A stretch of DNA of 64,000 nt from Desulfobulbaceae bacterium DB1 (GTDB lineage: Bacteria; Desulfobacterota; Desulfobulbia; Desulfobulbales; SURF-16), in the NCBI GenBank assembly GCA_001914235.1, contig MQUF01000014.1:2005-66004 (forward strand), given 5' to 3'. The stretch's first letter is position 1. Each line of letters begins with the position of its first letter. Shown here piece by piece: positions 14,332 through 23,475 of the stretch. A program made the position numbers and the translations under genes. Under the pieces are notes generated by a model. That model was not told where the DNA came from. It did not search any database and saw nothing but the letters and a program-made list of their open reading frames with translations.

Positions 14332-15828
14332 TTATCCCTCGGTCTCTTGGTGAACCAGATCTTCAGCGATTTCCCGGAACTGCTCCAAGGCGGCTTCGAG
14401 GTCTTCGATGATCTCGGCGGCAATGATGCCGGGATCGGGCAGATTATCGGAATCCTCCAGGGATTCGTCCTTGAGCCAGAAGATGTCGAGGCTTGCCTTG
14501 TCGCGGTTGATGATTTCATCGTAATCATATGACCGCCAGCGGCCGGCTTGATTGTCTCCTGACCAGGTGGGGTTGCGGTCCCGGCGGTTGGCAGGGTTGT
14601 AGTTTTCGACAAACTCGTCCAGATCGCTTCGTTTCAAGGGGTTGGTCTTAAGGGTGAAGTGGATGTTGGTGCGGAGATCATAGATCCAGAGTTTTCTGGT
14701 CCACGGGGTTTCCGAGGCCGGTTTCTTATCAAAGAAGAGGACGTTGGCCTTGACCCCTTGAGCGTAGAACAGGCCGGTGGGCAAACGCAGCAGGGTGTGG
14801 ACGTCACAATCGTGCAGGAGTTTGCGGCGCACGGTTTCCCCGGCCCCGCCTTCGAAGAGGACATTATCCGGCACCACGATGCCGCAGCGGCCATGCTGTT
14901 TGAGCAGGGTTTTGACATGCTGGACGAAGTTGAGCTGTTTGTTGGAGGTGGTGGCCCAGAAATCCTCACGCTCAACAATATCCACCTCCTTGGAGGCCTT
15001 GCCGTCTTCGCCGACAATGGTGGTGCTGCTCTTTTTGCCGAAGGGGGGATTGGTCAGGACGATCTCAAAGCGGTCGCCGGGATCGGCGGCCAGGGAATCG
15101 GCCACGGTGAGCGGCAGTTTGCCGCCGTTATTGCCGATGCCGTGCAGCATCAGGTTCATGGCGCAGAGCCGGGCGGTATTCTGAACCAGCTCCCAGCCGG
15201 AAAAGGTCGTGTCCTTAAGCGCCCGCTTCTCCTCCTTGGTCATATTGGGGTTATGGGCGATGATGTATTCATGGGCGGCCAGCAGAAAGCCGCCGGTGCC
15301 GCAGGCCGGGTCGCAAATGGTCTCACCCGGTTTGGGCCGGACCACATCAACCATGGCCTGGATCAGCGGGCGCGGGGTGAAATACTGGCCGGCCCCGGAC
15401 TTGGTATCCTGGGCGTTTTTTTCCAGCAAGCCCTCGTAGGCATCGCCCTTGACATCGGCGCTCATCATTGACCAGTTTTCCTTGCCGATCAGATCGACCA
15501 GCAAACGGCGCAGTTTGGCCGGGTCCTGAAACTTGTTCTGGGATTTATTGAAGATCAGCCCCAGTAAGCCTTTTTCCTTCCCTAATTGATCCAGGGTATG
15601 GCGGTAATGATCAAACAGCTCATCGCCGTCTTTCTTGATCAGGCTGGGCCAGTCGTACCCTGCCGGCACCGCACTCGGCTTGTTATACGGGGCGTGGGTC
15701 CGCTCATCCGACATCTTGAGAAACAGCAGATAGGTCAACTGCTCGACGTAATCACCATAACTCATCCCATCATCCCGCAGGACGTTACAGTAGTTCCAGA
15801 GTTTTTGGACGATATTTGCTGGGGTCAT
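14332..15828 (-). CDS. hsdM: type I restriction-modification system, DNA methyltransferase subunit M
   Basis: 498 aa. HsdM N-terminal domain (LWNYCNVLRDDGMSYGDYVEQLTYLLFLK). AdoMet motif DPACGTGGFL. Catalytic NPPFG. Confidence 0.95.
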   Translation of the reverse strand: MTPANIVQKLWNYCNVLRDDGMSYGDYVEQLTYLLFLKMSDERTHAPYNKPSAVPAGYDWPSLIKKDGDELFDHYRHTLDQLGKEKGLLGLIFNKSQNKFQDPAKLRRLLVDLIGKENWSMMSADVKGDAYEGLLEKNAQDTKSGAGQYFTPRPLIQAMVDVVRPKPGETICDPACGTGGFLLAAHEYIIAHNPNMTKEEKRALKDTTFSGWELVQNTARLCAMNLMLHGIGNNGGKLPLTVADSLAADPGDRFEIVLTNPPFGKKSSTTIVGEDGKASKEVDIVEREDFWATTSNKQLNFVQHVKTLLKQHGRCGIVVPDNVLFEGGAGETVRRKLLHDCDVHTLLRLPTGLFYAQGVKANVLFFDKKPASETPWTRKLWIYDLRTNIHFTLKTNPLKRSDLDEFVENYNPANRRDRNPTWSGDNQAGRWRSYDYDEIINRDKASLDIFWLKDESLEDSDNLPDPGIIAAEIIEDLEAALEQFREIAEDLVHQETEG

Positions 15829-15883: not shown

Positions 15884-17311
15884 TTACTTGCGCCGGTCGA
15901 GGGTGTTTTTTGCCACGGTAAAACAGTGAATACTGCTGGGGGTAAACTCGACTTGCACATCCGCGATATCCTTGATGCCGGAGCGTGAAAGTGTTGTCAC
16001 CAGGGGGATTCTTTGAAGTTCATGTTTCTTAACAAATCCCAACAGCCCCTTAATCTCCCGATGATCATCAAAAGCCCGGTCGGACCATTTCACCTCAACG
16101 GCAAAGCGTGGTCTTTGCTGGGCGTCAAGGCTTACCGAGTCCACTTCACCGCTTCTCCACCGCGCATAATATAACGAGTCCACAAAAGCTGCATTATGCA
16201 GCCACTGGCTGAATACGGCGGTTTCAACCAGCTGCCCCATGGCTTCATGATGTTCATCAACGGGTCCGAACAGGGCCGCACGCATGGTTGGGTTGGTAAG
16301 ATAGACTTTGAAGGTCATCATCCTTCTGAAGTGGGCCGCATCCTGATCAATCCTGCGAATCCTGCGGATGAGAAAGGCTGCCTCAAGGTATTCGAGATAC
16401 TTGACGAGGGTATTTTTTGCCACATGAGAAGTCTTGGAAAGATCATCAAGACTCAATTCCTGCCCGGTGTTATAGGCAAGTGTATTAAAGAGGCTGTTCA
16501 ACTCCTGAATATCCGTAATTCCATACAGGATAGGCAAATCACGCAAGAGGACTTTGTCGATAATATCACTTTTAATGTAACGCCTTGGATCTTGCCGGAC
16601 AGCTTCTGAAAAGACGGCCTCAGGGTAGCCGCCAAAGTTCAGGTAGTCGACAAAAGCCTTATTGAGACCTTGGATGTCCTCGGTCTCATACCGTGGAGTA
16701 TTCCCGCTGCCAACAACTTCCCGGATCAATATTTTCTCCAGGCCGATGAAGCGCAAGTATTCAGCAAAGGTGAGAGGAGGAAGAACATATTCGGTAAACC
16801 TTCCGGCCCCGGATTCCGCACTCTTGGTTTTCAGTGCTGCCGCCGCCGAACCCGTGGCCACAAAACTGATGCCGCGAAAGGTATCGACCAATGACTTCAG
16901 GTGGACTTCCCAGCCTTTGAGATATTGGATTTCATCGAAAAACACATATAAGCGGGTGCCGTCCGGACGAGTAAACAACCGTTGGAATCTGGTAACCAAA
17001 CTCTCCAGGGACAACCCGGTATAGATTGGCGTCTCCATGGAAACATAGAGGATGTCCCGACCTTTTATTCCGCCATTATCAAGCAGATCCTGGATTGCGT
17101 GGTAGACCATAATCGTCTTGCCGACCCGGCGCGGCCCAAGCAAAACCACGGCCCGATTCACCCCGGTCTGCCCCACAAGAGACGAGAAATCCGGCAGATA
17201 GGCCCGGCGCGGGAACGCTTGATAGTCGGGTTCGATCCCGGCCCCTGCCTGCCACCATGGGTTATCGAGCCGTAAACGATATTCTATTTCTTTTTCAGAT
17301 ACTTGCAGCAT
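15884..17311 (-). CDS. AAA-type ATPase with DUF4143-like C-terminal domain, inserted between hsdS and hsdM
   Basis: About 475 aa from ATG 17311 (MLQVSEKEIEYRL). Walker A GPRRVGKT, Walker B YVFFDEIQY. The C-terminal half resembles the AAA_14/DUF4143 architecture. Confidence 0.75.
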   Translation of the reverse strand: MLQVSEKEIEYRLRLDNPWWQAGAGIEPDYQAFPRRAYLPDFSSLVGQTGVNRAVVLLGPRRVGKTIMVYHAIQDLLDNGGIKGRDILYVSMETPIYTGLSLESLVTRFQRLFTRPDGTRLYVFFDEIQYLKGWEVHLKSLVDTFRGISFVATGSAAAALKTKSAESGAGRFTEYVLPPLTFAEYLRFIGLEKILIREVVGSGNTPRYETEDIQGLNKAFVDYLNFGGYPEAVFSEAVRQDPRRYIKSDIIDKVLLRDLPILYGITDIQELNSLFNTLAYNTGQELSLDDLSKTSHVAKNTLVKYLEYLEAAFLIRRIRRIDQDAAHFRRMMTFKVYLTNPTMRAALFGPVDEHHEAMGQLVETAVFSQWLHNAAFVDSLYYARWRSGEVDSVSLDAQQRPRFAVEVKWSDRAFDDHREIKGLLGFVKKHELQRIPLVTTLSRSGIKDIADVQVEFTPSSIHCFTVAKNTLDRRK

Positions 17312-17460
17312 ACGAACCCTATAAGGGCAAAACAATGAACAAAGAGTTGTCAAATAAGATCAAAACATTAACCTTGCTAGACAATTAGCAAAAAAAACTT
17401 TACAAATCAAGACATTACGATTGCATGAAACAAATAGTTTTTACAGATTGCGCTCTTGAC

Positions 17461-17547: not shown

Positions 17548-19014
17548 TCATACTTTTTCCTTCTTATCTGTGTTGCGCAGTATAAGCTGGCCGGAAAAGG
17601 CCTTGCTCAGAATTGATTGGCGCAGACGTTCAGCCCGTTTGAGGTTGGCCTCGACCTGGGCCTCGATTTCGCGGGTCAGGGAGAGGCGGCGGTCGACTTC
17701 GGCGACGATGCGGTGTTGTTCGGCGAGGGGCGGGAGTGGAATCACGATTTGTCTCAATCCTGCTAGTGGAACAGTTTTTTGGGCTGTTCCTGTTGCTATC
17801 GCAGTTGCTTGCCTAAATACGTAATTCGAAGCCATCGCAAAAGTGAGATAGTCCATCGGAGAATTTTCATGCGGGCGTAGTATAGCCATGTGGCGCTGAA
17901 TACTAAAGCGTTTTTCGGTTGTGACCCGAACAGGAATGCCATAGCTCCCCACCAAAGTATATAACAGGTCTCCTTGTTTCGGTTGGCGATTGGGATCAAG
18001 AGATTGGTAATAGTCTTCCGCTACATGGCGCGTATTAGAAAAATCAATTTTGCCGCTACGAACATTACCAATTACAATAAATGGAATTCCTTGATCAGTT
18101 TGCGGCGGCGGTTGGTGATCGCCGTCAGTAAGGTGTGCAATTAGTTGCTCGACAGTCGCCCACACCCATCCCTCCGGCAATTCAGGCAGGTCGCTGGTGT
18201 CGGGCGGGGCAGGTTCCTTGTATTTTCCTTTGCCTTGCCACTGGCTGCGACGGGTTTCGAGGATGCGTTGCAGAAGGTGCTCCCCGGTTTCAAGGTCGCG
18301 GCCTTGGCGGCGGGCGGCCGCTCCCGGCGTCCTGCCTTCCGCGGCACTGGCGCGTCCCTGTGCGGCGAGTTCGGCTTCGGTTTCAACCAGGCGTCCTTCG
18401 ACAGCGGCTTTGAGTACGGCGGCTTTGTAGCGTTTGAGGTTGGCCTTGACGCGCTTGAGATTGGTAACGGCTTCATCAAGCCGGGAGAATTGTTTTTCGA
18501 TTTCCGCAACGATGCGTTTTTGTTGTTCAGGCGGAGGCAGAGGAATTTCGCACTCTTTCAAATAGGGAGTTGTAACACGCCGTTGACCAACAGCACCGGT
18601 CATGTATCGTTCTGCTTCGCCACGAAAATTTTTACTAGAAACGTAGTAATAGATGTATCTGGCGTCGATACCTTCTCGGGGACGTAATACATGAAACTCT
18701 GTTGAACCAAAACCGAGATCATTTTTTAGTTTAGGCACGATAGCCATTTTCCCGTTTTCCATACACGGCGTAATTTTAGCAAACAGAACATCTCCTTCTT
18801 GGAATGGAGTGAAACCTTTTTTAACTTCTCCGAATAAGCGTTCTCCACTTACATCTATTGATCCATCTGCCGCCCCAACAGCTGGCATCGGGACAAACGA
18901 GACATTTAGGGCATCGGAAATACCAGCTTTGTTGATGCGAGGATTCACATCAGCGATGTCTTCTATTGTTGAAACTGTCCAGCCGACAGGAAGTTGTTTG
19001 TTATCCACTCTCAC
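17548..19014 (-). CDS. hsdS: type I restriction-modification system, specificity subunit S
   Basis: 488 aa. Two target-recognition domains separated by coiled-coil conserved regions (LPPPEQQKRIVAEIEKQFSRLDEA and LPPLAEQHRIVAEVDRRLSLTREIE). GTG start overlaps the upstream stop (GTGA). Confidence 0.92.
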   Translation of the reverse strand: MRVDNKQLPVGWTVSTIEDIADVNPRINKAGISDALNVSFVPMPAVGAADGSIDVSGERLFGEVKKGFTPFQEGDVLFAKITPCMENGKMAIVPKLKNDLGFGSTEFHVLRPREGIDARYIYYYVSSKNFRGEAERYMTGAVGQRRVTTPYLKECEIPLPPPEQQKRIVAEIEKQFSRLDEAVTNLKRVKANLKRYKAAVLKAAVEGRLVETEAELAAQGRASAAEGRTPGAAARRQGRDLETGEHLLQRILETRRSQWQGKGKYKEPAPPDTSDLPELPEGWVWATVEQLIAHLTDGDHQPPPQTDQGIPFIVIGNVRSGKIDFSNTRHVAEDYYQSLDPNRQPKQGDLLYTLVGSYGIPVRVTTEKRFSIQRHMAILRPHENSPMDYLTFAMASNYVFRQATAIATGTAQKTVPLAGLRQIVIPLPPLAEQHRIVAEVDRRLSLTREIEAQVEANLKRAERLRQSILSKAFSGQLILRNTDKKEKV

Positions 19015-19310
19015 GCCGCCAAAGCCTCATTCAACTCTCCAATCATCGCATTCAACTCCTCACCAAAAAGCTGATACACCTTACCCAATCCACCTTCCTG
19101 GGCAAAAGGCGCATATCCGAAATCGGTCGCTCCAGGCGTCCATGCCTCCCGCGACACGAATACGTCCTGGATGTCGTCCGTCTCAATACCGAGATTGGCG
19201 GTAATATGCTCGCGGATCATATCGGAGACCCATGGAAAACACATACGAAAATCCATATGATGTTTTTGGACAGAGAAAACATCATATGGGATATTTTGTT
19301 TCATCTTCAT
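19011..19310 (-). pseudogene. hsdR 3'-terminal remnant (tail copy 3); frame intact, 99-aa ORF
   Basis: The C-terminal 71 aa (MIREHITANLGIETDD...GGLGKVYQLFGEELNAMIGELNEALAA) parallel the end of HsdR. The first 28 codons are unrelated. Stop overlaps the hsdS start. Confidence 0.7.
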
Positions 19311-19398
19311 GCTATCTCTTCATCATATGCAAAAAACAACTCACTTTGCGGGCAAATCAAAGAGGGATTTTTCGTCTAATCCGTGATATATTTAAACC

Positions 19399-19587
19399 AT
19401 GCAAACGAAAAGCTTGAAAGAAACCAATCCTTATCTGAAAGCCCCGGTAACCCGGGAAAAAGGTTTGTGGTCCAGCGTGTCGTCATCATCGGCGATCGAA
19501 GGCGTCCATGTCACCAGAGAGAAGGTCACCGGCACGACGGTTACTTCTCCTCGTAAGCCTGAAGAGTCCGGTCAATCACCGCGCTGA
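19399..19587 (+). CDS. candidate FicA/VbhA/YhfG-like antitoxin (small ORF with SxxxEG inhibitory-helix motif)
   Basis: 62-aa ORF containing SSSSAIEGV, which matches the [S/T]xxxE[G/N] motif. Compare E. coli YhfG ASRRLEGV, recalled from memory. Convergent with fic and overlaps its 3' end by 47 nt. No clear RBS. Confidence 0.45.
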   Translation: MQTKSLKETNPYLKAPVTREKGLWSSVSSSSAIEGVHVTREKVTGTTVTSPRKPEESGQSPR

Positions 19588-20194
19588 AAAATTCTCCCAT
19601 GGGTTGATAATCCCTATCCATTCCCTTGCGTACAGCCGCAAAATACTCCTCTTTTCTTTCCCCCTCGAACTCACTGAAATCCAAGGGCGGCAATCCCGCC
19701 TGCAGGGCCATAAGCATTGCCAGAAGCCGGGACAGTCTGCCGTTTCCTTCGCGGAACGGGTGGATCAATAATAATTCGGTGTGCACAATTGCCAGGGCCT
19801 GGATCTGCTCCTCTCGATCTGCAAAGGTGCAGGGCGTAAATCGGCGCAACTCATTTTTCTCGAAATCCGCCATCAGTTGCGGGATGACTCTGGGCAAGGC
19901 AAAAGTAAACCCGCCTTTGCTGATGGTTACCTGCCGATATTTCCCAGCCCACTCATAGACCGGACCAAGCCAGTTGCGATGCATATTGCAGATGTCGCCA
20001 GCGGTGAATTGATGATCCTGATCGAAGATCTCGGTCATTTGTTCCGTGACCCGGTAGAGTTCTCTTGTTTCTAACTCTTCAATCTCCTGCTTGTCTTTTA
20101 TATGGAGAAGATTTTTGAGAACAAGTCCCCCGGATCCTGCCTCATATTGATCCTCAATGAAGCCGTCGGTTTTATATCGTCCGGACTTTTTCAT
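19541..20194 (-). CDS. fic: Fic-domain protein (AMPylase-type toxin, class I: no internal inhibitory motif)
   Basis: Canonical Fic motif HPFREGNGRLSRLL. About 217 aa from ATG 20194, 1 nt after the upstream stop. I find no [S/T]xxxE[G/N] within the protein. Confidence 0.88.
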   Translation of the reverse strand: MKKSGRYKTDGFIEDQYEAGSGGLVLKNLLHIKDKQEIEELETRELYRVTEQMTEIFDQDHQFTAGDICNMHRNWLGPVYEWAGKYRQVTISKGGFTFALPRVIPQLMADFEKNELRRFTPCTFADREEQIQALAIVHTELLLIHPFREGNGRLSRLLAMLMALQAGLPPLDFSEFEGERKEEYFAAVRKGMDRDYQPMGEFFSAVIDRTLQAYEEK

Positions 20195-20195
20195 G

Positions 20196-20675
20196 CTAGG
20201 CCGCCAAGGCCTCATTTAACTCTTCAATAATTACATCCGAATCCTCGCCAAAGAATTGATGCTCCCGGCTCAAACCACCTTCCGGGGTGGAAGGTGCATA
20301 ATCAAAATCGGTCGATCCCATCATCCCTGTCAACCGTGACACGAATACGTTCTGGATGTCGTCCGTCTCAATATCGATTGAATTGACCCGGTAGCCGACG
20401 GAGATTATGGCATCCAGATTATAATGGGTTAACGTTCGCCGAACCTGCCTTTTTCCCTCTTTTTGAACTGCCGAGAAATCCTCGGTAGTTGCTTTTTTCT
20501 CAAGTTCCTCATCCGCAAAAATATTTTTCAGATGGAGGCTGATATTGTCCGAGGAGGTGTCAAAGAGTTCTGCCATCTGCCTCTGGGTAAGCCAGACGGT
20601 GTCGCGGTCGAGCCGCACCTCAACGGTTCTCTCTTCTGCCTCATAGATAATTATTTCAACATGCTCATTTTGCAT
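20196..20675 (-). pseudogene. chimeric ORF: RhuM-family N-terminal ~100 aa fused in frame to hsdR tail copy 2
   Basis: N-terminus VEVRLDRDTVWLTQRQMAELFDTSSDNISLHLKNIF...HYNLDAIISVGYRVNS matches the RhuM N-terminal region (full-length RhuM is ~330 aa). C-terminus IETDDIQNVFVSR...DFDYAP...VIIEELNEALAA matches the HsdR tail. ATG at 20675 lies 1 nt after the hsdR stop. Confidence 0.7.
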
Positions 20676-20676
20676 A

Positions 20677-23475
20677 TCAAGCCGCCAAAGCCTCATTCAA
20701 TTCTTCAATTATCACATTCAACTCCTCGCCAAAAAGTTGGTGTACCTTTCCCAGCCCGCCTTGCTGGGCAAATGGCGCATAGTCGAAATCGTCGGTTTCA
20801 ATGCCGAGATTGGCGGCGATATGGTCGCGGATCATGATCAGCCAGTTACGCTGTTCGTCGGTAAATTTCCTGCCGCTTGCCTCCTGCTGGGCGAGCCAGG
20901 CCTTGAAGTTGGCCTCAACCTTTTCCGGAAACGGTACCAGCTCATTCTCCTGATGCATGGCAAAGCGGACCAGGGAAACAAGATCAGTCAAAATATGCGG
21001 GGCATTGGCCCCCTTGACCCTGGCCTTTTCCAGAGCCGCATAAGCATCCCAGAGATTATCAACCCGGAAATGGTGCGGCGGCTTTTCGATCCGAGCGGCC
21101 AGCTCCTTGATATCCGCAAAACGCAAGCGGCTCTTGTAGGGCCTGCTGTAGAGAACCTGCAGGGCGGTGATCTCGTCGCGGTTGTCGGCCAGAAACTGCT
21201 CGAAGGATTGGACCATGGACTTGACCTTTTCCAGGGCCTCGACGGAAAACGCGGCGGAGATCACCTGATCTTCACTGATGTTATCAATGATCTGCTCGTT
21301 CTTTCGCTTGACCTCGACCAGGAAGTTGCGGAGCGCCGGATTATGCAGCGGCCTGGTGGCCTCGACAATCAGTTTGACCCCGGCCTGTTTGATCTGCTCT
21401 TCGCTGGGCTCGGTGCCGCCGTTATCCTGCCTGGCCCTGTCAATCTGATTGTCGGGCTTGATGGCGGTGACCAGACCCGCGGTCAACTGTTCGATGGTCT
21501 TACCATTGGAAAGAAGGGTCACCTGGCGGTCATCCGCAGGGGTTATCTGGCGGCCGATGCGGGCCATGCGGGCGGCAAGGGACGAGATCACATCCGGCTC
21601 GGTATTGCCAAGCGCGATCGCCTGCAGGAGTTTTTCGAAACTGACCGTGGGCTTTCTCTCCATGGGCCGGGAATCGGTCTTGTCCATCTCGCAGACGCCG
21701 ACGCAATCGACAATGATGAAATGGTCCTTGACCCTGGCATCCGGGGTGACCGATTGTAAGTCGCTCTGGTTGATGATCCGGACGCCGCGGCCCTTCATCT
21801 GCTCGAAGAAGGAGCGGGAGCGGACGGCCCGCATGAACATGACGATTTCCAGCGGCTTGATGTCGGTGCCGGTGGCGATCATGTCAACGGTAACGGCGAT
21901 GCGGGGATTGAAGCTGTTGCGGAAGGAGGCGATCAGCTGTTCCGGCGTGCCGCCGGAGGTTCTGTAGGTGATCTTCTGGGCGAAATCGTTGCCCTTGCCA
22001 AACTCCTCGCGGATGATCTTGACGATATCCTCGGCGTGGCTGTCGTCTTTCGCGAAGATCAGGGTCTTGGGCACATATTCGCGGCCCGGAAAGATCTCGG
22101 TCAGCACCTTGTCGCGAAAGGTTTGGACAATGGTGCGGATTTGGTCGACGGCCACCACATCGCGGTCGAGCTTGTTGGGATCGTACTCGAAATCTTCATC
22201 GAGCTTTTCCCAGCGGGTGGTGCGGGTCTCGCGGTCGCGTTTGTCGATATAGTAGCCGGACTCAACCTTGGAGCCTGCTTCGGTGATCCTGGTCTTGATT
22301 CGGTAGACATCGTAATTGACGTTGACGCCATCGGCCACGGCCCGTTCGTGATCGTATTCCATCACCAGGTTGCGGTTGAAGAAGCCGAAGGTCTGCTTGG
22401 ACGGGGTAGCGGTGAGGCCGATGAGAAAAGCGTCGAAATACTCCAGCACCTGCCGCCAGAGGTTGTAGATGGAGCGATGGCATTCATCGGTGATGATGAA
22501 ATCAAAGGTTTCGATGGGGATATCGGGGTTGTATTCCAGGGGTGGGATTTCCTTGAACAGACTGTCCAGCCCGTGAGGCGATTGGTCCTCGGCCTCTTCG
22601 GGGAGCTCTTGGCCCCGGAGCATGGAGTAAAGCCGCTGGATGGTGCAAATGCAGACCTTTGCGGTGGTATCGATGGTGTTGGAGGTGAGGCGCTGGACGA
22701 TGAACTCCTCGCTGAACTTGTAATTGTTGTAGGGTGAGACGTATTGCTGGAACTCTTTTAAGGTCTGCTTGCCCAGGTTGCCGCGATCGACCAGAAAGAG
22801 GACGCGCTTGGCCCCGGCGAACTTGATGAGCCGGTAGATAATGGAAATGGCGGTGAAGGTCTTGCCGCTGCCGGTGGCCATCTGGATCAGCGACCGGGGG
22901 CAGTCGCGGGCCAGGGATTTTTCGAGATTTTTGACCGCCTGGATCTGGGCGGGCCAGAAACCGTCTTCGATGAGAGGCGGCATGGTGCGGAGGCGGCCCC
23001 GCAGGGTGGAATGCCGGCTGAGATATCCGGAAGTTGCTTCGGCGGTTTGGCTGGGGATTTTCTCTGCTTCCTCGAAAAGATACTCCGGCTTATGAAAGGC
23101 GAAGACCTGGCGGGAGCGGGGGGCGGGATCAAGGTTATTGGTAAATCTGGTCTCGTCGCCGGTGGATTCGTAACAAAAGGGCAGCGGTTTGGCCCAGGCA
23201 GGGAGGCCGTCGGGCAGGCCGTGGGCGTATTTGTCGGACTGGATCTCAACCCCGGTTAGCGTAGTGCCGGTCTTTTTGGCCTCGATGACGCCTGCGGCCT
23301 TGGCGTCCACATAGAGAAGATAATCGGCAAAGCCATGTCCGCTTTTCAGGGGAAATTCACGGATAGCCACGCCCTTGGCGGCAAAGATGTTGGTGTCCTT
23401 GACATCCTGAACCAGCCAACCGGCCTGGGTAAGCAGTTGATCTATTTTTTCGCGGGCGTGAATTTCGCAGGTCAT
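20677..23475 (-). CDS. hsdR: type I restriction-modification system, endonuclease/translocase subunit R
   Basis: 932 aa. N-terminal HsdR nuclease-like domain. Helicase motif I MATGSGKT, motif II ITDECHR, motif VI QMKGRGVR. C-terminal helical tail. Confidence 0.95.
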   Translation of the reverse strand: MTCEIHAREKIDQLLTQAGWLVQDVKDTNIFAAKGVAIREFPLKSGHGFADYLLYVDAKAAGVIEAKKTGTTLTGVEIQSDKYAHGLPDGLPAWAKPLPFCYESTGDETRFTNNLDPAPRSRQVFAFHKPEYLFEEAEKIPSQTAEATSGYLSRHSTLRGRLRTMPPLIEDGFWPAQIQAVKNLEKSLARDCPRSLIQMATGSGKTFTAISIIYRLIKFAGAKRVLFLVDRGNLGKQTLKEFQQYVSPYNNYKFSEEFIVQRLTSNTIDTTAKVCICTIQRLYSMLRGQELPEEAEDQSPHGLDSLFKEIPPLEYNPDIPIETFDFIITDECHRSIYNLWRQVLEYFDAFLIGLTATPSKQTFGFFNRNLVMEYDHERAVADGVNVNYDVYRIKTRITEAGSKVESGYYIDKRDRETRTTRWEKLDEDFEYDPNKLDRDVVAVDQIRTIVQTFRDKVLTEIFPGREYVPKTLIFAKDDSHAEDIVKIIREEFGKGNDFAQKITYRTSGGTPEQLIASFRNSFNPRIAVTVDMIATGTDIKPLEIVMFMRAVRSRSFFEQMKGRGVRIINQSDLQSVTPDARVKDHFIIVDCVGVCEMDKTDSRPMERKPTVSFEKLLQAIALGNTEPDVISSLAARMARIGRQITPADDRQVTLLSNGKTIEQLTAGLVTAIKPDNQIDRARQDNGGTEPSEEQIKQAGVKLIVEATRPLHNPALRNFLVEVKRKNEQIIDNISEDQVISAAFSVEALEKVKSMVQSFEQFLADNRDEITALQVLYSRPYKSRLRFADIKELAARIEKPPHHFRVDNLWDAYAALEKARVKGANAPHILTDLVSLVRFAMHQENELVPFPEKVEANFKAWLAQQEASGRKFTDEQRNWLIMIRDHIAANLGIETDDFDYAPFAQQGGLGKVHQLFGEELNVIIEELNEALAA

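Follow-up and report, generated by a model that had tools for sequence, protein, structure and literature searches.

Accessory genes occur within type I restriction-modification (R-M) operons, as exemplified by RloC and the Campylobacter rlo genes. A gene can also be left intact by an element inserted at its end: e14 and phage 21 in icd, and elements that integrate in tRNA genes, bring a replacement 3' end, and the displaced pseudo-3' end remains. Reported examples of embedded accessory defence genes are TgvAB, from VPI-2 of Vibrio cholerae, and PrrC (PMC12707154, PMC11411939), and RhuM, Fic, and DUF1016 genes are found between hsd genes (PMC9881135). Insertion with long target duplication has been described for defence loci (Nobusato et al. 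2000; Furuta et al. 2010, PMC2853133); the repeats that it leaves measure tens to hundreds of bases and are near identical, for example at 417/423 positions (PMC2853133). We analyzed a 64-kb stretch (the window) of the metagenome-assembled genome (MAG) 'Desulfobulbaceae bacterium DB1', in which a type I R-M operon contains the 3' end of hsdR three times, once in hsdR itself and twice more behind accessory cargo and ahead of the next gene. These two additional copies are probably scars that mark the boundaries of accessory cassettes, that is, an informative scar and not a new protein.

The functional tail comprises the final 52 codons of hsdR (20677-20832; all coordinates of the DB1 locus are on the minus strand unless marked (+)). 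Two more copies lie at 20196-20378 (relic 2) and 19011-19220/19226 (relic 3), giving the layout tail 1, RhuM N-terminus, tail 2, Fic module, tail 3, hsdS. The first-pass annotation of this DNA had placed three clearly diverged tails here, and pairwise alignment agreed: ungapped nucleotide identity was 85% between tails 1 and 3, 78% between tails 2 and 3, and 74% between tails 1 and 2. A degenerate pattern of the final 26 nucleotides (nt) matched exactly three sites, which were the tails, and three or more matches were obtained in 0 of 100 shuffles. The differences among the tails were mostly at third codon positions, and the relics resembled the resident tail no more than they did the tails of other genomes. 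Two finer points of that annotation also held: a 48-nt (16-codon) insert following the residues IETDD is common to relics 2 and 3 and absent from the resident tail, and in one 36-nt block (19153-19188 versus 20338-20373) the relics are equal at 35 bases.

Each tail leads directly into the next start codon, as had been claimed, with TGA-T-ATG at 20677/20675, TAG-C-ATG at 20196/20194, and GTGA at 19011-19014. Relic 2 forms the end of ORF159 (20196..20675), an open reading frame (ORF) that begins with about 100 amino acids (aa) of a RhuM N-terminus. The alleged in-frame fusion was recovered by alignment, ORF159 following residues 12-106 of a 355-aa RhuM before it enters the tail; the Pfam RhuM match was limited to positions 1-39. 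The middle of relic 2 is badly degraded and its final 12 codons are intact. ORF159 is what a deletion left of a RhuM cassette and of the relic behind that cassette. The Fic gene (19541..20194, 217 aa, HPFREGNGR motif; Pfam Fic, NCBIfam VbhT/Fic-like) starts 1 nt past the stop of relic 2. Relic 3 is joined to a hairpin-derived leader in ORF99 (19011..19310), in which the relic itself spans 19011-19220 and the stop overlaps the GTG start of hsdS (17548..19014, 488 aa, Pfam Methylase_S). Mechanically called ORFs begin further upstream, at lengths of 166 and 224 aa. The start codons preferred in the first pass are the sensible choice: the 159-aa start agrees with that of P0183, a near-identical homolog, and the 217-aa start with the Fic genes of L122, L123, and L127 (L and P numbers denote individual loci and proteins).

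To remove ascertainment bias, 80 genome loci were picked solely by similarity of the HsdR C-terminal domain. The cargo-free junction for which the first pass had suggested a search in relatives was found in 38 of the 80. In these there is a single tail, and hsdS overlaps the hsdR stop by 4 nt (ATGA or GTGA), its start lying 3 nt ahead of the point where that stop codon ends; relics, one or two per locus, were found behind cargo in 15. The same hsdS overlap is kept by relics, including those of L042, L051, and L090 and that of the window. The cargo beside relics comprised RhuM, Fic, a RhuM-N/Fic hybrid, AAA_14-DUF4143, GmrSD, YhcG/DUF1016, ORF6N, and Abi_2. Searching with ORF99 retrieved 33 proteins, each of them short and about 15 of them with the 16-aa insert, and the contigs encoding these homologs read hsdR, cargo, tail ORF, at times further cargo and another tail ORF, and then hsdS. 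In the MAG RIFOXYD12_FULL_57_12 (L006/L007) there are again three tails, in the order hsdR-Fic-tail-RhuM-tail-hsdS, with Fic and RhuM in the opposite order to the window.

Relics ranged from ~15 to ~140 codons and had at least 12 distinct 5' ends, whereas the 3' end of the tail was retained in most and abutted the next start wherever this was checked; the relics of L053 and L103 are without the extreme 3' end. Their final codons, AAT GAG GCN ..., hold GAGG about 10 nt ahead of the next start, and third codon positions were better conserved in the last seven codons, which include this GAGG. The presence there of the ribosome-binding site of the next gene would account for the retention of the very 3' end by even the shortest relics. 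Decay of the kind for which the first pass had suggested looking in relatives was evident in the relics of L053, L010, L052, and L071, which contain stops or are heavily degraded; relics in relatives can also be truncated. The family-wide pattern of relics and junctions indicates that a relic is a remnant of the original hsdR-hsdS junction. The proposal that cargo was delivered at the junction of hsdR tail and hsdS start is thus sustained in substance and across the family, and recombination is the mechanism that we infer for it.

Other arrangements of tails and cargo were also seen. In L010 (6076-10624; also in L011 and L012) a RhuM gene, a relic bearing the 16-codon element, two Fic genes, and a truncated RhuM gene follow one another with no hsdR, hsdS, or hsdM nearby, and this run looks like an orphaned cassette array. 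A 48-codon relic in L107 (9578-9721) lies downstream of hsdM and ~6 kb from the hsdR end, whereas the usual position of a relic is before hsdS. In L123 (2383-2781, P0014) a piece of a RhuM N-terminus is situated within a relic tail, the converse of the fusion in the window, which indicates that RhuM and tail sequences were joined by illegitimate recombination more than once. In the 104-aa protein P0085, an HsdR N-terminal segment with helicase motifs is joined straight to the tail; this looks like an internal deletion of hsdR.

The cassettes and the tails beside them differ in age. The 3' end of Fic, the 230-nt interval that follows it, and the ORF99 leader are common to the window, L122, L123, and L005 at 92-97% identity (65-93% for the leader), whereas the tails that come after the cassette in these four loci are 73-84% identical and the genes downstream are unrelated. 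The differences between these tails begin at their first bases and are mostly at third codon positions, and the tail to the left of Fic is as variable as the one to its right. Fic genes of the identical 217-aa type follow a tail in L122, L123, and L127. The RhuM cargo gave a similar picture: the RhuM proteins of L013 and L042 are 98% identical, whereas the relics are ~81% identical in DNA and 60% at third codon positions. Young cassettes beside old tails indicate that cargo was exchanged between operons that retained their own tail-hsdS units.

Among the footprints described so far, that of insertion with long target duplication comes closest. As in that process, no mobility gene is present, and the cargo is flanked by direct repeats of which relatives with the empty site, here 38 of 80 loci, have a single copy (PMC2853133). 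The two differ in that whole R-M units were inserted in the described cases, whereas accessory cargo lies inside an R-M operon here, and in that the repeat here is the hsdR 3' end, with copies that are 74-85% identical and separated by coding-type substitutions instead of being near identical. Integration that supplies a replacement 3' end, as by e14 and phage 21, is a good functional analogy, since the target stays intact and the displaced native end is a diverged, mostly synonymous copy beyond the insert. Those elements use an integrase and a defined core site, whereas no linked recombinase was seen here or in those related loci that were inspected, and the length of the displaced end is not constant. 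With the reported embedded cargo of type I operons the loci examined here share the same families (RhuM, Fic, GmrSD-like, DUF1016) between hsdR, hsdS, and hsdM; in the passages searched, hsdR-end relics bordering the cassettes go unmentioned. Literature searches turned up neither hsdR-tail relics nor the two-hairpin repeat treated below.

These comparisons suggest the following course of events. In an ancestral operon of the order hsdR-hsdS-...-hsdM, the hsdS start would have overlapped the hsdR stop, with the hsdS ribosome-binding site in the last hsdR codons (...N-E-A-L-A-A). Incoming DNA would have brought a cassette between hsdR and hsdS along with a replacement hsdR 3' end, possibly through homologous recombination anchored on the tail, and each such event would have stranded the prior 3' end ahead of the next gene, so that the two extra tails would be relics marking cassette boundaries. 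The cassettes of the window would have been a RhuM gene, truncated later, and a Fic module that includes a terminator-like hairpin and, convergent with Fic, a small ORF. The 3' portions of relics would persist because they bear the translation start region of the downstream gene, and their frames would be open because they were functional hsdR ends until fairly recently; stops are perhaps disfavored where the next gene relies on ribosomes arriving from upstream. Recombination between a tail and a relic may drop the cargo and return the 3' part of the relic to hsdR, which would expose relic lineages to intermittent selection. The extra 16 codons are a copy of a dispersed repeat that is exchanged among its copies.

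Constraint on the relics was evaluated against a reference set of 71 non-redundant resident tails. Residues that occur at most once among these 71 were present at 2.18 per 52 in relics and 0.27-0.59 per 52 in resident tails (P ~1e-5), an excess of ~4-8x over functional tails, and they included changes at the conserved glycines of GGLGK. Relics were no closer to one another than to resident tails. The ratio of nonsynonymous to synonymous substitution rates (dN/dS) was 0.33-0.81 for relics whose flanks are 95-97% identical and 0.06-0.2 for deep pairs. The dN/dS check proposed in the first pass thus gave a split answer, with constraint over deep comparisons and its relaxation over short branches; the low deep values may reflect constraint inherited from service as an hsdR end, followed by relaxation after stranding. 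Among 7432 RhuM homologs, the tail part of the RhuM fusion in ORF159 was covered by one near-identical protein alone, P0183, and there was no further full-length match.

Several observations weigh against the reading of the extra tails as scars. The deep-pair dN/dS of element-bearing relics was 0.075, compared with 0.048 for resident tails, and a simple old neutral scar is insufficient to account for this value; the relics may have been stranded recently, from functional alleles that differed, or may return to service periodically. Three kinds of junction, at the RhuM stop, at the stop of the RhuM-N/Fic hybrid, and at the hairpin of the Fic cassette, all start the relic at the Met of MIRDHI, which is the sole in-frame ATG of the tail. 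Such coincidence is unlike random breakpoints, and therefore either a translatable frame was selected or the site is a preferred one for joining. In P0010, P0014, and P0016 a frameshift is restored 14 nt further on, which suggests selection for an open frame. About 10 cargo-bearing loci had no detectable relic, so stranding is not obligatory. Lastly, nearly all full-length relics in loci of the Desulfobulbales type carry the repeat at one site, whereas 0 of the 71 resident tails do; this fits conversion among relics together with selection against the repeat in hsdR.

The shared Met start and the restored frameshift could be explained by a ribosome relay, and the alternative that survives best is built on this. 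Relic frames would be kept for ribosomes that end at the relic stop and go on to translate hsdS or the next cargo, with selection acting on the frame and the last ~40 nt and the peptide itself free to change. We regard this as a tentative possibility, and it would complement the origin of the tails as scars. Consistent with it, 4-nt overlaps occur at both relic ends in L001, L009, L013, L042, and L125, short relics of 15-22 codons retain just the 3' end, and third positions are better conserved in the final seven codons. Relic 3 of the window, however, is separated from Fic by 230 nt and a terminator-like hairpin, and therefore no relay from Fic is possible there. The relics with stops (L053, L010) and short relics without their own start codon also speak against a relay, and free amino-acid change is predicted by it but the deep dN/dS is low.

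It is unlikely that the cassettes belong to a site-specific system in which a recombinase cuts and pastes them at a core at the start of the tail, in the manner of elements that carry a replacement 3' end. The boundaries between cassette and tail are sharp and recurrent on both sides, and the tails beside a given cassette differ between loci from the first bases, both as such a system would produce. Yet no integrase or transposase was found among the ORFs of the locus or of the related loci inspected, the variety of relic lengths (at least 12) argues for joins at many positions, and left-hand tails were no better conserved together with the cassette than right-hand tails.

The first-pass annotation had also raised the idea that the tail ORFs are decoys or tethers. 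Products of 69-99 aa and 159 aa would then bind HsdM2-HsdS through the HsdR tail and tune restriction or bring in the RhuM N-domain. Peptides of ~69 aa, with two terminal HsdR helices and a loop encoded by the repeat, would compete with HsdR for the methyltransferase core, and every cassette gain would then come with a built-in restriction damper. Frames are intact in at least 12 loci and the deep dN/dS is ~0.08, and a low-confidence model places the repeat between the last two predicted helices, which could survive its presence. We nonetheless find the decoy, and the competition by short peptides that goes with it, quite improbable. The RhuM fusion is confined to the DB1 lineage, relic lengths vary from 15 to ~140 codons with stops in some, and each relic has its own unusual replacements at near-invariant positions such as GGLGK; the high dN/dS on short branches agrees with this. 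ORF99 starts within a hairpin with no clear ribosome-binding site, and its leader varies among loci. The docking role was carried over by analogy from studies of EcoKI and EcoR124I, type I enzymes of other families, and no solved structure permits its transfer to a C-terminus of the EcoEI_R_C type: a sequence search of the PDB with the C-terminal 187 aa of HsdR returned no meaningful relative, and an AlphaFold model of the domain, made from a 15-sequence alignment, had a predicted local distance difference test (pLDDT) score of 46.7 and was unusable.

Local tandem duplication of the hsdR end within the DB1 genome followed by divergence, for which three direct repeats in one locus might be taken, is scarcely credible, as it is contradicted by copies that are only 74-85% identical with mostly third-position differences, that are no closer to each other than to the tails of other genomes, and that have counterparts in relatives with the same relic-cargo layout, other cargo, and shared junctions.

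With the tails read as cassette scars, the 16-aa segment within relics 2 and 3 calls for a separate account. It had been attributed to a different hsdR allele; this was not borne out, and an allele class marked by the insert was ruled out because the repeat sequence also lies in unrelated genes. The segment is an in-frame copy of a dispersed ~50-nt two-hairpin repeat with GGA loops. When metagenomes were scanned with a pattern of the insert, a matching ~50-nt sequence was found in ~20 contigs without an hsdR tail. The repeat has the form GGACGAC-AUAC-AGGAY-GUAU-UAGU-GUCGC-GRGAG-[hairpin]-NRA-GCGAC, and the insert is 48 or 51 nt long. A covariance model (R1) recovered 36 copies from 27 sources; one pair of helix 1 is AU in 17 of them and GC in 17, and the covariation exceeded that of all 500 shuffles and of all slid-structure controls. 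In most copies the first bases are GACG, which reads CGTC on the opposite strand, and some have GTAG past hairpin 2.

The window contains three copies and none further in the 64 kb. The copy in relic 3 (19119..19182, core insert ~19129-19176) scored 73.7 bits (E 3e-18) with R1, and that in relic 2 (20304..20367, core insert ~20314-20361), in which hairpin 2 is degraded, scored 43.9 bits (E 3e-10). A third, more diverged copy, missed in the first pass, lies in frame in the central linker of hsdS (18310-18373; 34.7 bits, E 1e-7). There the linker reads ...ETEAELA-AQGRASAAEGRTPGAAAR-RQGRD..., compared with ...ETEAELARREGRSYETG... in insert-free relatives, and it is lengthened by ~17 aa. In other type I enzymes the recognition-sequence spacer is set by the length of this linker, so a possible effect of the insert on specificity is worth checking.

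Elsewhere, in-frame copies were found in the hsdS linker of L043, L077, and L086, in hsdR of L078 and, in antisense orientation, in hsdM of L078 and L090. The uvrA gene of L040 (8983-9100 (+)) contains two copies in tandem with a period of 51, again in frame, at a point between its UvrA_inter domain and its DNA-binding domain. In L021 (5493-5555 (-)) the repeat interrupts the second unit of an RtT-like repeat downstream of a tRNA; the first unit is uninterrupted, so the pair provides a comparison of empty and filled site. Viral contigs contained no copy of the repeat pattern, and no partner transposase was identified in the loci inspected. No family matching the repeat was found in Rfam 15 for ten repeat-bearing loci, the L017 array described below, and the window region.

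The repeat appears to move independently of the tails. An ORF99-type relic in L122 is without it, and between L009 and L013/L125 the flanks of the relic are 95-97% identical and the hairpin-2 variants differ, so the repeat was exchanged without the sequence around it. The derived hairpin-1 bases ATCC and TTCGTG are common to relics 2 and 3 of the window, which marks the 36-nt block as a patch of local conversion. A full-length HsdR with the 16-aa insert was not found in an exhaustive profile search, although the library was clustered at 50% identity and cannot exclude one; the word-indexed ORF99 search was uninformative on this point, as it returned short proteins only and missed even the resident HsdR.

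The two-hairpin repeat belongs to a known class of intragenic palindromic repeats, which includes Rickettsia palindromic elements, repetitive extragenic palindromes tagged with GTAG/CGTC (PMC3733652), and multicopy sequences within Geobacter genes (PMC2700814, PMC2996986). As in that class, dispersed small hairpins are inserted in frame and in either orientation in the linkers of intact genes, uvrA among them, and also lie between genes. The repeat described here differs in having two GGA-loop hairpins with a fixed spacer, UAGUGUCGCGRGAG, in its absence from Rfam 15, and in its concentration in type I R-M genes in the sample examined. Other, unrelated hairpin repeats were observed in frame in the HsdS central linker (L070 at ~11950, L059, L066, L099, L119) and in the HsdR linker ahead of the tail (P0037, P0038, P0145, P0153), one example encoding EAASRRL...RQDAA(S/T)T. 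These HsdS and HsdR linkers seem to serve generally as landing sites for small repeats.

The CsrA/RsmA-binding hairpins in Csr/Rsm sponge RNAs have the consensus RUACARGGAUGU. Hairpin 2 of the repeat (e.g. CACAGGGAUGUG) matches the core ACARGGAUGU, and hairpin 1 reads AUACAGGAUGUAU. The loops, AGGAY and (A/C)(A/U)GGGAU or AUGGAC, resemble CsrA-binding sites, and the GGA motifs are ~27-29 nt apart, a spacing that would allow one dimer to sit on both. In contrast to such sites, the repeat is present within genes in either orientation, as would be expected of a DNA repeat more than of an RNA site under selection. Between genes, arrays of hairpins with GGA loops that include the repeat were noted in L017 (2177-2445), L031 (4450-4560), and L015 (7500-7721); the L017 array gave a weak, sub-threshold rsmX match (E 0.21), and that of L015 a TwoAYGGAY match above the gathering score, adjoining the repeat copy. 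These arrays may be Csr/Rsm-type sponge RNAs.

The Fic cassette has at its right end a terminator-like hairpin (19252..19290). Its stem is perfect over 14 bp (-16.8 kcal/mol, z -4.6) and leads into a T-rich run; such runs are present on both strands, and in L122 the stem is kept through a change on both of its sides. The 28 codons that the first pass had described as unrelated sequence ahead of relic 3 are present, but they overlie this hairpin, which falls under ORF99 codons 8-20. The junction of leader and tail recurs in L122, L123, and L005, and in L123 the leader is deleted. If the hairpin terminates transcription, hsdS, the ATPase gene, and hsdM would need their own promoter; a simple scan found no convincing promoter for hsdS inside relic 3.

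The 230-nt interval between Fic and ORF99 was ruled out as a non-coding spacer, as it contains a conserved ORF on the opposite strand. This ORF (19399..19587 (+), 62 aa) is convergent with Fic and overlaps its 3' end. In four loci its N-terminal 38 aa, including an SSAIEG motif, are nearly invariant, with one variable position; there are 13 unnamed homologs, and no match was obtained among family models. In class I Fic toxin systems (VbhT/VbhA, Fic/YhfG) the partner carries (S/T)xxxE(G/N) and is encoded upstream in the same direction; SSAIEG fits this motif, but the ORF is convergent. On the motif, the product is a possible Fic inhibitor. In L005 (9693-9818) a 41-aa remnant made of a RhuM N-terminal fragment and the last 8 Fic codons lies ahead of the small ORF, a case in which Fic was deleted and the putative partner kept.

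On the minus strand the locus reads YajD-type HNH, hsdR, ORF159, Fic, the 230-nt interval, ORF99, hsdS, an AAA_14/DUF4143 ATPase gene, hsdM, and YwbE/DUF2196. HsdR (20677..23475, 932 aa) is a type I restriction subunit with a ResIII/helicase core and an EcoEI_R_C C-terminal domain (Pfam, NCBIfam PRK11448), and with HsdS and HsdM (14332..15828, 498 aa, Pfam N6_Mtase and HsdM_N) present the system is EcoAI/EcoEI-like (family IB-like); the match of HsdR to EcoAI/FtnUII is partial. The AAA_14/DUF4143 gene (15884..17353, Pfam) between hsdS and hsdM is another embedded accessory gene, with no adjoining tail relic. In L056, L099, and L126 a gene of this family stands right behind hsdR, with a relic next in line.

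The relics constitute a readable record of the entry and exit of accessory defence genes in type I R-M operons, with one relic per gain, and the pattern is present in about one of five loci of this hsdR family. The contrast of young cassettes with old tails indicates that cargo is swapped among operons of different specificity and across lineages. Should recombination of tails with relics also remove cargo and restore hsdR, such operons would function as recombinase-free cassette arrays. For annotation, the tail ORFs should not be called genes. In addition, an uncatalogued two-hairpin repeat lies in frame inside hsdS, hsdR, hsdM, and uvrA.

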